From Marsupella aquatica (lineage: Eukaryota > Plantae > Marchantiophyta): a stretch of 64,000 nucleotides of DNA. Below are positions 14,792 to 28,844 of this stretch, piece after piece; positions within the stretch are counted from its first letter, which is position 1; each line of letters opens with the position of its first letter. The notes beneath the pieces are model-generated. The model had not been told where the DNA came from, searched no databases, and saw only the letters and a program-made list of their open reading frames with translations. The DNA lies in assembly GCA_973895155.1 (NCBI GenBank), contig OZ316893.1:1-64000 (forward strand). The letters run 5' to 3'. The translations under genes and the position numbers were made by a program.

Positions 14792-16433
14792 ATGACATTT
14801 CCACAACCCACTCAAGTAAGTAACATAATATCTATTTTTTTCAATCATTTTTAAAAAAATTATTAATATAATAGACATTATGGATTTAAGTAACTAAAAA
14901 ATATTATATTATTACAAGTTTATATTAATTTTTTAATCAAAATTCTGATTGGTAATAAATATTTACTATATTTAATAGTGTAACAGTTTTATTTAAAAAG
15001 TTTGGAAAACAATTTGATTAGTACTGACACAAAAATGCAATTTGACAATTTTGCAGATGCTCCATAAACGAAGGGAGAGGAGAAAAAATGAAAATAAATT
15101 TCATGAATATGGCGCCGAATTTTCTATCATAACATTTTGTTCAATATGGGATTATCTAAGCAAATTATGTGAATCTAAACAACAATTTATTTTATATTGG
15201 ATTTTAAAAAATGAAAATATTTTTGTATATTTTGTTACACACATTTTACAAATAAATGTGTCCAATTTTTCAAGAGCTAAATTTTTGAATGGGTATAACA
15301 ACTGCAGAAGTGCAATTTCACCAATTCTCCCTCTTCAAACACTTCAACAAACCGAGAAAATCTTTCATCATCATCAACAGAGACAAAAATTGCCTCCACT
15401 ATTGAAAAAATTCATGGGAAAATTTCACATCCTTAACCTATCCCAACTCCGTACCTTACAAGTAGAGAGGGTAGCTTCTTGTAAAGTTGACAATACATTC
15501 TCTTCAACACAAGTAGAAGTGCAACAAATATCAAAATCACAACTGAAAAAATTGACTGGAGTGATAATGGGAAATTGGAATGAAGACATGACTAAAACCA
15601 ATCATAGTAATCTTACATTCACATTTGAGCGTTATCCATCAAATTTTCTAGTGATAGAGAAATCTGAAAATATTGTTTACTTTTACGACAAGTCAGGGAA
15701 AAAGCCTTGGCTTGTAGCAATGCTTATGCACCAACAAATATTGGGAGTGACAACATTACAATTCATTCGAAAACTTTTGAGTGCATTGTTTGTTGCTCAT
15801 TCTCCATTTCAAAGAGGCGAGGGGAAAAAAGCTTTTGACAGCTTCATGACAGGATATGGTCCTTGGAATAGCAGTTACATGGGTGGCCGTTTGACTTATT
15901 ACACACACCAGAAGAAGATGAATACCATTTTCGATGATTGCCTTGATGTCAAAGATTTTGAGAAGTGGATCGATAAATATTCACATATTGAACTTATGGA
16001 TATTATATTGGGGCTTTATATGTGGTGGTGCCCAGAGATGATAGAGTGTTTTTTGGAATACTCTCATCCGTACTTACTATCATCTGATGGTGACAAATAT
16101 CATGGAAGTGAAGAGCAGATAGGGGAGAATGTTAGACCTAGTACTTACCAATTATATATAAGTGAGGATTATTGTGTGCAAACACATGCTGATGATGATG
16201 CAACTGACTTCACCTTAGCGTATGCTAGTCATCCTGACCATTTCCTTTCAGCAATCGATTTTGTAATTCCAGAGTATGGAATTCGATTGCCAATTAGAGA
16301 TGGAAATCTATTTGCATTTCGGAGCGATGTTGTTCATGGTACAGGCTTTAGAATGAAAACATCGAATCCTGCATATGTTGGAGCTATTACCGTGAATAAA
16401 AACCTCAGCAGACTGATGCAAAAATTACATTAA
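14792..16433 (+). CDS. TET/JBP-like 2OG-Fe(II) dioxygenase, copy 1 (probable 8-codon exon 14792-14815, intron 14816-15056, main exon 15057-16433)
   Basis: Intact ORF. THADDD (His at 16185)...FVIPEYGIRLPIRDGNLFAFRSDVVHGT (His at 16335) gives an HxD..H triad in a DSBH pattern. A GTAAGT...TTGCAG phase-0 intron joins in frame. Confidence 0.7.
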
Positions 16434-17330
16434 AATTATTGTGTAGATGTGCTCTCCCGGGGCAAGCTGAGAGCGCTTGGAGGGGCTACTCAAAGTGGTG
16501 AGTGCTCGTAGGGTGGAGATGACACCATGGTCATTTTGGATTTAGCCTGGTCATCATTATATTTGGTATTGAAATTCAGATTCTGACGTCATTTTAGCGA
16601 TTCTTTCAAGAAGAGTAAGGGTTTGGCATAATCTCGTTGAAAAATGGAATGTTGTCATCATGACTTTGCAATATTGGGCATGTTGAGGTGTGAAAGGTAA
16701 GGCATGTTACTTGTTATGGGGGTGATATATTGAAATGGGGAGGTTTTGCAAGATAGAAGAACTCAAATAAATCAACTCAAAGGTGGAATTGACATGATCA
16801 GCACACGTACCCTTGAGAGTAACAAACACTTTGATGATGAGGCACCAACCACAAGTTGCAAACCCCAAAGGACAAGGGTGGGTGTGGATGTCCGGAAAAT
16901 GGTCTTATTCTTGTGGGGTTAGTGGTATGCATTCATTGTATGACTTTGTAGAAGAAACATACAGGCAACTTCACCTTGTTTAGTAAATCACCCTTATTGG
17001 GCTTGTTACTTGCTTCCCATGGGCTGAAGATACAACTGTAGAGATTCTATATAGGTGGGCATCCAAACTCATCAAGGGCATAGTTACACTTGATTTGCGT
17101 GAACACCTCCAGTCATCAAATTATTGAATGTTGTCCAAACTAATCTTCTAAGCCATTTTGGTTTGCCATGACACAACCCATGCAGACCATTGAAATAAGC
17201 ACATGTGAAACTGATTTTTTTGAATACCCTGTCTGATTCTTGTAGGCCCGCTTGTAGGTCCATTACAAGGAGAGTGAATTGCAGAATTGGCCATTGTTTC
17301 TAACGGGTCTGGAAGGCTTGACAAGGTTAG

Positions 17331-17990
17331 TACATCTTAACACTTGCATTTTATGATTGACATGAGGGCATTCCAGCACTCATGTTGCAAGGCAGGGGGC
17401 TGTTTCACCTGGATTCAATTATGATAAGAATTACATATAAAAGTAGTTCTAAAGGAAGAATTAAATTCACATCCTTTATTGCCTCCTATTATTTTCACCT
17501 TCCCATGTACTTGTTTCGTCTTAGGGTATCACAATATTTCTGGGGGCGGTGGTGGTTGGAAAAGGTTGGCACATTTTGACACTTGCATTTAACAATTGAG
17601 ATAAGGGCATTCCGGCACTCATGTTGCAAGGCAGGGGGCTGTTTGACCCGGAGTCAATCATACAAAAATTATATATAAAAGTAGAAAAAAAAAAAACCAA
17701 ATTCACATCCTACATTTCCTCCTACTGTTTTCCCTCTCCTGCTTGTTTCTATTATGGTATCATATTATTTCTAAAGAAGGAGGGGGGCAGCTCAAAAAAG
17801 TTAATATATCTTGACACTTACATTTTAATGATTGAGATGAGGGCATTCCGGCACTCATGTTGCAAGGCAGGGGGCTGTTTGACCCGGACTCAATCATACA
17901 AGAATTACATATAAAAGTAGAAAAGAAAAACCAAATTCACATTCTACATTTCCTCCTACTATTTTCACTTTCTTACTTGTTTCTATTATA
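17331..17990. repeat. Three tandem ~238-bp diverged repeats
   Basis: gggcattccRgcactcatgttgcaaggcagggggctgttt recurs in units starting at ~17331, 17571 and 17806. Confidence 0.88.
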
Positions 17991-27300: not shown

Positions 27301-27401
27301 TCTGGTTATTGTTATTTAATAGTTCCAGATAGTTTGACTGGAGATATGTATTTTGAAATAAATATCTGTATAAATTAAAGTATGTTTTTGGAATTTTTCA
27401 G

Positions 27402-28844
27402 ATGGCAAAACGAAAGTTTTGGAAAGTGAACAAACAAATGAAGGAAGATGGCAAATATGAGTATGAGAAAATGAAATTTGCAATGGACGTTTTCATTCAA
27501 ATTTTTTCAGCGATCATGATATTGCATCCACGTTCACAAAAGTTTGCCATGTTATTTCTTCTTCAAGAAGATAATATTTTTCAAGCATTTGTACAAAATG
27601 TATTGAATATTAAACATACTGTATCGAAAGCAATGATATATAATGCTTACTATAGATTTAAAGAAATTGGACCACCAAAAACCTTTACTTCTTGCGCATG
27701 GGAGAATATCTGTGATATTCTCGATCATCATTATTCTTTAGATTCAGTACCCTATAGTATAAGAAAATACATCCATTTTCTTAGGTCATCTACCTATATT
27801 GAAGAGTGTGTAAAAAGAGAAAAAAATATGCTAGAGAAAAAAGAAATGGTGTTTGAAAAAATTATTTCCCAATTTTGGTGGGGAAATGTGAATCCAATGG
27901 AATTAGTGCAAGGATTTTGGGGAAGAGTTGATGATGAAGGTGAATGTTTTTATCGCTTAGAATTAGAAAAAACATTACAAATACTTTCTAGAAGAAAAAA
28001 CAAAGGGAAAGAAATTGAAATTGAAGAGGCACCTATATATAGGGAGCTTCCAATTTCTTACGTTGAAATCCAAAAAACAAAACAGGTTACGGAGATCTAT
28101 GATAAAATCTCAAGTGAGCTAGTGGGTATCCATATTCGCCCTAAAGATGTTCATAAATCTTTTACTATATTGATACGAACTTATCTTAAAGATCTTTTTT
28201 GTGCTCATCCAAGTTCAAAAAGATCTAAAACTAGAGCATCCTATATGAGTGAAATGGTGGGGTTCGGTCCATTTCACCATACATGGACACCTGGAAAAAA
28301 TGTTACATCTTTCTACACTCATAGTAATAAGTTAGTAAAAGCTTCAAAACCTTTAAAAGATTTTGGTAGATTTATTGATCGATTTGCACATGGGGCTGTG
28401 GTAGAAATTTTAATGTCTATGTGGTTTAGATATTATCCTACGTTATTACATACTTTTCTTAGATGTTGTAACCCTTACTTAGAAACTTCCCAATATATTA
28501 AGGAAGGTGTTGAGATACCATTTTTTGATAAGCACATGAAGAAGGGACCTCCTGCTTATCAACTATTCATTACTAGAGATTATTGTTCACGTTTTCATGT
28601 GGACAATGATAGGACAGAGTGGACACTAGCATATACTAGTCACCCTGATGAACATATTTCACCAGTTGATTTTGTATTTGCCAAACATGGATTTATATTA
28701 CCTTTGCATAATGGTGATTTATTTGCATTCAAAGGCAAACATCTCCATGGTATGGCTTTTAGAAAACCAACAGAAAATCCTGCATATATTGCAGCTTTAG
28801 TTATGAATAGTGGCTTAGGACAATTATTAAATAGAATAGAGTAA
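27402..28844 (+). CDS. TET/JBP-like 2OG-Fe(II) dioxygenase, copy 2 (480 aa), preceded by a probable 5'UTR intron 27023-27401
   Basis: FHVDND (His at 28596)...FVFAKHGFILPLHNGDLFAFKGKHLHGM (His at 28746). Same 50-aa His spacing as copy 1 and alignable to it at both ends. TTTCAG|ATG acceptor. Confidence 0.72.
   Translation: MAKRKFWKVNKQMKEDGKYEYEKMKFAMDVFIQIFSAIMILHPRSQKFAMLFLLQEDNIFQAFVQNVLNIKHTVSKAMIYNAYYRFKEIGPPKTFTSCAWENICDILDHHYSLDSVPYSIRKYIHFLRSSTYIEECVKREKNMLEKKEMVFEKIISQFWWGNVNPMELVQGFWGRVDDEGECFYRLELEKTLQILSRRKNKGKEIEIEEAPIYRELPISYVEIQKTKQVTEIYDKISSELVGIHIRPKDVHKSFTILIRTYLKDLFCAHPSSKRSKTRASYMSEMVGFGPFHHTWTPGKNVTSFYTHSNKLVKASKPLKDFGRFIDRFAHGAVVEILMSMWFRYYPTLLHTFLRCCNPYLETSQYIKEGVEIPFFDKHMKKGPPAYQLFITRDYCSRFHVDNDRTEWTLAYTSHPDEHISPVDFVFAKHGFILPLHNGDLFAFKGKHLHGMAFRKPTENPAYIAALVMNSGLGQLLNRIE

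Follow-up and report, generated by a model that had tools for sequence, protein, structure and literature searches.

Two intact TET-like genes in a liverwort contig

The first 64,000 nt of contig OZ316893.1 from the liverwort Marsupella aquatica (assembly GCA_973895155.1; hereafter the window) contain two intact open reading frames (ORFs) whose products diverged from each other long ago and belong to one protein family without a name, with a predicted TET/CMD1-type dioxygenase fold. An earlier examination of the letters alone (the sequence-only reading) had described two AT-rich ORFs about 12 kb apart, each with an intron acceptor directly before its ATG, and had proposed that they are TET/JBP-like paralogs carried as cargo by a mobile element. 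Its description of the frames was confirmed: they encode 458 and 480 aa, lie 12.3 kb apart on the + strand and have GC contents of 35% (gene 1) and 32% (gene 2). Their parts are the following.

14792–14815, + strand: putative first coding exon of TET-like gene 1, comprising 8 codons (phase 0) from ATG 14792, followed by the donor GTAAGT (14816) and sharing the frame of ATG 15057
14816–15056, + strand: predicted intron of gene 1 (241 nt, 17% GC, GTAAGT..CAG)
15057–16433, + strand: main exon of TET-like gene 1 (ORF1; ATG 15057, stop 16433, 458 aa; intact)
27023–27401, + strand: predicted 5′ intron of gene 2 (379 nt, 24% GC, GTGAGT..CAG), containing a 77-nt tandem repeat
27402–28844, + strand: TET-like gene 2 (ORF2; ATG 27402, stop 28844, 480 aa; intact)

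The chance of so long an open frame at each gene's own base composition is ~1e-16 (gene 1) and ~1e-18 (gene 2), and the other two + frames across the two genes contain 30–54 stops each. In both genes a predicted acceptor ends in CAG directly 5′ of the start codon (TTTTGCAG / TTTTTCAG), a context with comparable examples at 26 of the 2476 ATGs in the window. Splicing is a prediction for both genes. Because the exon 5′ of the predicted gene 2 intron carries in-frame stops, it is probably untranslated. The region was found in four public runs (X1–X4) belonging to two studies, and in all four the contigs have a joint at the repeat of this intron that fits one extra 77-nt unit.

The two proteins are 26% identical over an alignment that spans nearly their full length (124 of 483 columns, E 6e-56), rising to 32% within the catalytic domain, and the motif noted at the outset as common to them (YQL.I..DYC...HxD.D....TLAY and its continuation) is present in both. 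Residues 205–480 of gene 2 constitute a predicted double-stranded beta-helix dioxygenase domain. Both proteins contain an HxD...H iron triad, namely H377/D379/H427 in gene 1 (counted from ATG 15057; R253, H377-x-D379-x-D381, H427) and H399/D401/H449 in gene 2 (R274, H399-x-D401-x-D403, H449).

A divergent family with a predicted TET-type fold

Neither window protein was named by sequence searches of Pfam, NCBIfam, PHROGs or the PDB. Word-based protein searches retrieved only 1 and 2 relatives, whereas a full HMMER scan over 1.84 billion representatives yielded 33 proteins, one of which (P0025, a spurious repeat protein) was dropped, while P0022 and P0024, matching the N-terminal half only, were left out of the alignment. 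None of the 19 relatives looked up among the 33 has an informative name, and all 19 lie on contigs of 0.7–4 kb; in scans of metagenome, viral and prokaryote contigs none of the relatives' loci was confirmed. Members of the family are only 20–45% identical to each other, yet the iron triad is invariant. Conservation in the 34-row alignment amounts to 17/17 for R274, 30/30 for H399, 29/30 for D401, 30/30 for D403 and 25/25 for H449, and the N-terminal half is also conserved among the longer relatives. The family tree (22 rows, after exclusion of 12 short ones) is largely unresolved, with 8 of 19 inner branches open, and indicates no donor.

A profile of the catalytic core of the family matched a single PDB protein, CMD1 (E 3e-4), while single-sequence PDB searches gave nothing useful. 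USP16, the top profile match (E 9e-4), aligned to a non-catalytic stretch and disappeared with the core profile; we take it as chance. Among 27 family members, 5 match PF20515 and 2 match Tet_JBP, all below the gathering cut-offs (12–21 bits versus 27–35). The nearest neighbours in the ESM Atlas are unnamed fungal clusters (0.94–0.97), followed at 0.93 by clusters in which 15–16% of the members carry PF20515 (Tet-like) or Tet_JBP.

Modelled with the alignment, residues 205–480 of gene 2 gave a predicted local distance difference test score (pLDDT) of 89.6 and a predicted template modelling score of 0.88; the single-sequence model was poor (pLDDT 34), and the good model covers this domain, not the N-terminal 200 aa. 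The fold of gene 1 is taken from its homology to gene 2. In a structural search of 48,161 chains, TET2 ranked first (Z 14.4, root-mean-square deviation (rmsd) 4.1, 228 residues aligned), CMD1 second (Z 13.7, rmsd 5.2, 231 aligned) and NgTET1 third (Z 13.6, rmsd 3.6, 201 aligned), with AlkB next (Z 12.8, rmsd 3.1, 170 aligned). A repeat comparison left the order unchanged, with Z values overall of about 13.5–14.7 for TET2, CMD1 and NgTET1 and up to 13.0 for AlkB. Foldseek placed CcTET best (E 2.8e-7), with CMD1 also at the top and ALKBH1 and FTO near, and the best named viral structural match was a JBP1/TET domain protein. As modelled, gene 2 thus has the fold of a dioxygenase acting on nucleic acids, and it resembles the TET group best, though the lead is modest. 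This supports the TET/JBP-like fold proposed from sequence: in the comparison with NgTET1, CcTET and CMD1, the best matches are TET-group nucleic-acid enzymes, and not 2-oxoglutarate oxygenases acting on other substrates.

The same comparison bears on the possibility that the enzymes are active on a base other than 5-methylcytosine (5mC), that is N6-methyladenine (6mA), N4-methylcytosine, alkyl damage in DNA or RNA, or thymine, perhaps in telomere-like tracts. AlkB, at Z 12.8–13.0, follows closely behind TET, and CcTET, the top Foldseek match, also oxidises 6mA (PMC12730594). However, the TET-group structures align over 200–233 residues, compared with 165–177 for AlkB.

Active site and likely chemistry

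The invariant arginine R274 stands, by sequence position, at the place expected for the first active-site arginine (TET2 R1261, CMD1 R244). The second arginine (TET2 R1896, NgTET1 R289), which binds the C5 carboxylate of 2-oxoglutarate, is absent from 21 of the 23 rows that cover it, including both window genes, and its position holds Ala, Val or Thr in the family; within columns 459–463, Arg or Lys occurs in two rows only, P0027 and P0032, the most divergent ones. These two distant relatives, which keep the canonical second arginine, may connect the family to fungal PF20515 proteins. This register agrees with the ends of the aligned ranges (model 276 = TET2 1915/1916 = CMD1 429), which put TET2 R1896 and CMD1 R410 at 460–461, assuming that the last 20 residues are ungapped. 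By the same inferred mapping, the base-stacking aromatic of TET2 and CMD1 falls on Val, Thr or Ala, a replacement that, like the missing arginine, is just as compatible with a changed or lost activity; CMD1 F416 corresponds to V/T467 and R418 to N469. An ungapped HMMER alignment pairs CMD1 Trp358 with V/A/S/T at 412. A family-own arginine at 454, five residues after the distal histidine, is kept in 17 of 24 rows and may take over the binding of 2-oxoglutarate.

Loss of the second 2-oxoglutarate-binding arginine makes textbook TET chemistry unlikely, and the oxidation of 5mC or thymine, which the sequence-only reading cited as the known TET/JBP activity, cannot be assumed. With that arginine missing and the pocket altered, the proteins are TET-like in a working sense, not strict TET members. 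With TET2, NgTET1 and CcTET they share the predicted fold, the iron triad, a candidate first arginine and the acidic residue after HxD; they differ in the Ala/Val/Thr at the Arg1896/Arg289 position, in sequence (8–12% identity) and in an extra N-terminal helical half.

Published structural work gives this loss a precedent (PMC7854593): TET2 and NgTET1 hold 2-oxoglutarate with two arginines, while CMD1 of Chlamydomonas skips the second and takes ascorbate as its co-substrate, converting 5mC to 5-glyceryl-methylcytosine. CMD1, which thus does without the second arginine itself, is the only PDB protein recognised by the core profile and scores Z 13.5–14.4; its Thr337, His345, Asp347, His397 and Thr399 align with T/S391, H399, D401, H449 and T451 of the family. 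The family is not a CMD1 copy either: the tryptophan of the ascorbate pocket that keeps 2-oxoglutarate out of CMD1 (Trp358) is paired with a small residue here, although some other pocket residues are kept. Phe416 and Arg418 would be replaced as described above, and overall identity is 12–14%.

Such an active site could mean that the proteins have lost turnover while retaining their fold and metal, and instead bind or shield the methylated DNA of the element that carries them. The second arginine missing from 21 of 23 rows and the apparently replaced stacking aromatic fit this possibility, and the conserved helical N-terminal half (~200 aa) could bind DNA or protein. On the other hand, the iron triad is retained among such dissimilar sequences, CMD1 is active without using its second arginine (PMC7854593), and the family has its own arginine at 454. 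On balance, we consider a purely binding role distinctly unlikely.

The pocket is equally relevant to activity on another base. The aromatic and the His/Arg that hold cytosine appear to map to Val/Thr and Asn, as a different target might require; but the invariant upstream arginine and the aspartate after HxD match the TET/CMD1 pocket, and no base-J-type glycosyltransferase was seen among the ORFs scanned (see below). A target other than 5mC therefore appears unlikely to us.

The surrounding block and its probable engine

The TET-like genes lie in a block of ~40 kb with these further features.

991–1239, + strand: left copy of a 249-nt direct repeat, candidate element end, holding a 9-9-9 inverted repeat at 1166–1192
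1240–1675, no strand assigned: C-rich degenerate repeat tract, loosely complementary to 39329–40790
7838–31734, no strand assigned: run of host-gene fragments around both TET-like genes (Pfam)
33644–38605, − strand: gene with OrsD, a recombinase-like middle domain and RecQ helicase, of the telomere-linked-helicase type (intact, 1653 aa)
39329–40790, no strand assigned: tract of degenerate G-rich repeats, lying upstream of the helicase gene
41534–41782, + strand: right copy of the 249-nt direct repeat, with 1 difference relative to the left one; candidate element end

The fragments between 7838 and 31734 include a leucine-rich repeat receptor kinase (in several frames), a pentatricopeptide repeat E motif, a DNA gyrase B-like piece, the EF hand of a phosphoinositide-specific phospholipase C, protein phosphatase 2A B56, a zinc knuckle and an MIP aquaporin. 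Local tandem arrays occur among the captured fragments at 17326–17989, 23560–23801, 24146–24344 and 48990–49147 (units of 236, 72, 74 and 28 nt).

The helicase gene matches Pfam OrsD, DEAD and Helicase_C and the RecQ family (E 9e-47). Its protein has one relative that we found, 62% identical, in the liverwort Calypogeia fissa (CAM6130039.1), and its ESM feature neighbours are mostly Ascomycota. The captured plant gene pieces and the telomere motif in themselves mark the host as a land plant, and this single named homologue makes a bryophyte likely. The motifs LPARGEE, YHK, YRH and GGH...HHY of the middle domain are conserved in both liverwort proteins and, read by eye, resemble the R-K-H-R-H-Y set of a tyrosine recombinase. 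An exact 34-nt direct repeat has one copy inside the helicase ORF (34691–34724) and one downstream of it (32961–32994).

This gene is likely the engine of the element. The sequence-only reading had noted that TET/JBP enzymes travel with KDZ transposons in basidiomycetes. A KDZ association was rejected here: no KDZ, DDE or HUH transposase was found by Pfam in 224 scanned ORFs (8 + 130 + 86) out of 401 frames (stop-to-stop, at least 55 aa), a scan that a spliced or decayed gene may escape.

The terminal structures seen are just the 249-nt direct repeat, whose copies frame the block and terminate in CTAAACC telomere-type repeats, and the loose inverted tracts, whose C-rich and G-rich sequences give inverted matches of 65–75% that are partly compositional. 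The left copy of the 249-nt repeat grows out of a 121-nt tandem array (1–1101). Its perfect 9-9-9 inverted repeat was reached in 2 of 2000 shuffles (fold z −3.45). Rfam gave no match. From its sequence, the 249-nt repeat could be a recombination site or an element end. The terminal hairpin might also be that of a Helitron; no Rep/Pif1 gene was found among the ORFs scanned.

Indirect evidence for selection and hints of multiple copies

Beyond the block the window contains one more member of the family.

About 55631–56040, − strand: third family copy, a decayed 3′ fragment with stops and frameshifts, its 5′ side truncated by a Gypsy element

It was detected by tblastn (E 8e-20) and by the family profile (E 2e-21), has a GC content of 21% and differs from gene 1 at 97 positions, of which 44 are C>T or G>A and 11 are in the opposite direction. 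That both genes are under selection, as the sequence-only reading had suggested from their open frames, thereby gains indirect support: because the two open frames stand beside decayed host fragments and a decayed third copy, they argue for frames kept open by selection.

The public runs offer a hint of copy number. In X1, contig depth, which is not itself a copy number, was 127 for gene 1 (3336 nt, 1 difference), 121 for gene 2 (2172 nt, 2 differences) and 115 for the helicase gene (3713 nt, 3 differences), and it was flat along 14.5–38 kb, compared with 11–24 for diverged contigs matching the host fragments. The corresponding depths in X2 were 127, 197 and 182, with 35–101 for the diverged host-fragment contigs. 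The latter are likely the host's own source genes, since identical diverged alleles (at 31185–31279) recur in all four runs of the two studies. In all four runs, too, a junction at 14345 continues into other sequence without gene 1, with higher depth to its left; contig depth at 12000–14345 is ~2 times that of the TET-like genes, and it is the commoner variant that continues with other sequence. Taken together, the depths hint at 3–10 near-identical copies of the block with variable cargo. The cargo status claimed at the outset is accordingly supported in an indirect way, by the broken host fragments around the genes and by this depth hint. Runs from two studies, labelled as two organisms (A and B), share the block at 99.9% identity.

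Repeated blocks beside telomere-type sequence might alternatively represent a subtelomeric mosaic spread by chromosome-end recombination, with the TET-like genes serving the host or hitch-hiking. Fungal OrsD/RecQ genes are markers of subtelomeres that exist in many near-identical copies (bioRxiv 10.1101/721753); here, telomere repeats and satellites frame the block, and no target duplication was identified. Within the window the telomere repeats are interstitial. But the decayed third copy sits outside the ~40 kb block, in different surroundings, the variant that runs on at 14345 lacks gene 1 in all four runs, and depth ratios vary between runs and, in X2, between the two genes, as variable cargo would. 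Protein searches also returned no named conserved single-copy orthologue of the family. We regard such a mosaic as quite improbable.

A probable gene-capturing element with two putative DNA-modifying enzymes

The reading that we favour, and hold with about even confidence, is that the block is a young, gene-capturing element whose two enzymes would, if their predicted activity is real, modify 5mC and weaken silencing. The OrsD/recombinase-like/RecQ gene would copy the block between the telomere-like sites. Each TET-like protein would bind Fe(II) through H-x-D...H and flip a base out of the DNA, and this base would be 5mC, judging from the fold and from the conserved arginine and aspartate, which correspond to residues of the 5mC pocket in CMD1 and TET. 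As Ala, Val or Thr replaces the second 2-oxoglutarate arginine, the co-substrate would be held differently, by the family arginine five residues past the distal histidine, or would be another compound, as in CMD1 with ascorbate. The altered base would no longer be read or copied by the plant methylation machinery.

Several observations weigh against this scenario. Neither window protein has a Tet_JBP or PF20515 match in Pfam, and those of the relatives are below the cut-offs. The structural lead over AlkB is just 1–2 Z units, with ALKBH1 and FTO close in Foldseek, and the absent second arginine and the apparently replaced base-stacking aromatic agree with a changed or lost activity too. The recombinase assignment has no profile support (no match in Pfam, PHROGs or the PDB sequence search). 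No contig spans the block, and the material covered showed neither a second locus nor an empty site nor a target duplication. Finally, CpG is depleted inside the TET-like genes (observed/expected 0.33–0.55) to the same degree as outside them in the window, so the genes show no trace of long-term protection from methylation.

A bolder version would see here a giant, recently spreading element of a non-seed land plant, moved at telomere-like sites by its recombinase-RecQ protein. Two enzymes of a new TET-fold family would write a DNA base so far undescribed in land plants, with some co-substrate in place of 2-oxoglutarate, and would thereby escape methylation silencing. We think this combination unlikely.

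Relation to known systems

The closest parallels are fungal. According to Kojima 2025 (PMC12730594), 11 lineages of fungal DNA transposons carry TET/JBP genes of untested function, among them KDZ, hAT7, PHISTA, IS3EU, EnSpm, ESTA, Plavaka and Helitron; PU, AG and PE types are included. Its main text does not mention Crypton, Starship or algae, and its three mentions of plants are unrelated. Like these transposons, the Marsupella block has an intact TET-fold gene within a probably repeated element, for which an anti-silencing role is proposed, and a weak similarity to PF20515. Unlike them, it resides in a land plant and combines two 26%-identical paralogs, its TET-like proteins lack the second arginine, and in place of a DDE or HUH transposase, none of which was found among the ORFs scanned, it has a gene of the telomere-linked-helicase type.

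With the fungal telomere-linked helicase elements it shares OrsD/DUF3505 and RecQ in one ORF, near-identical repeated blocks (as the depths hint) and nearby telomere repeats, but it differs in its plant host, its captured plant fragments and its TET-like cargo; the accessible part of bioRxiv 10.1101/721753 describes no TET cargo on the fungal elements. TET/JBP proteins are mentioned in green algae in the review PMC11065753, which in its accessible part lists no land-plant case. Our literature search, from which subscription papers were mostly excluded, turned up no account of TET-like genes carried by an element of a land plant, and none of such genes next to a telomere-linked helicase.

In land plants the removal of 5mC is usually ascribed to glycosylases, and TET enzymes are regarded as absent. 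If true, a mobile plant element that carries an intact TET-fold family would represent a second route, one owned by a parasite. The element would provide a direct test of the fungal idea of anti-silencing TET cargo, and the alterations in the active site suggest a new kind of base chemistry, for which CMD1 is a precedent. Both enzymes are small and single-domain, which makes them easy to express and assay, and the block shows the telomere-linked-helicase family in a plant in an intact, cargo-carrying form.

Other features of the window

Just outside the block, at 42006–43613 (− strand), two adjoining coiled-coil ORFs of 359 and 175 aa, one stop apart and with 57% GC, end beside telomere repeats at 41838–41862; they match no convincing Pfam family and may be a remnant of a retroelement gag/ORF1. 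Nested, broken Gypsy/chromovirus pieces occupy 56033–62400 (− strand), where a 109-nt perfect inverted repeat (61231–61339 and 62275–62383) flanks a reverse transcriptase segment and a TTTAGGG tract lies at 59272–59299. A 25-nt exact repeat (45075–45099 and 56048–56072) has one copy where the Gypsy element meets the third TET-like copy, and downstream of this decayed family member a 118-nt repeat (51692–51809 and 55385–55502, 82%) is possibly part of an older element.

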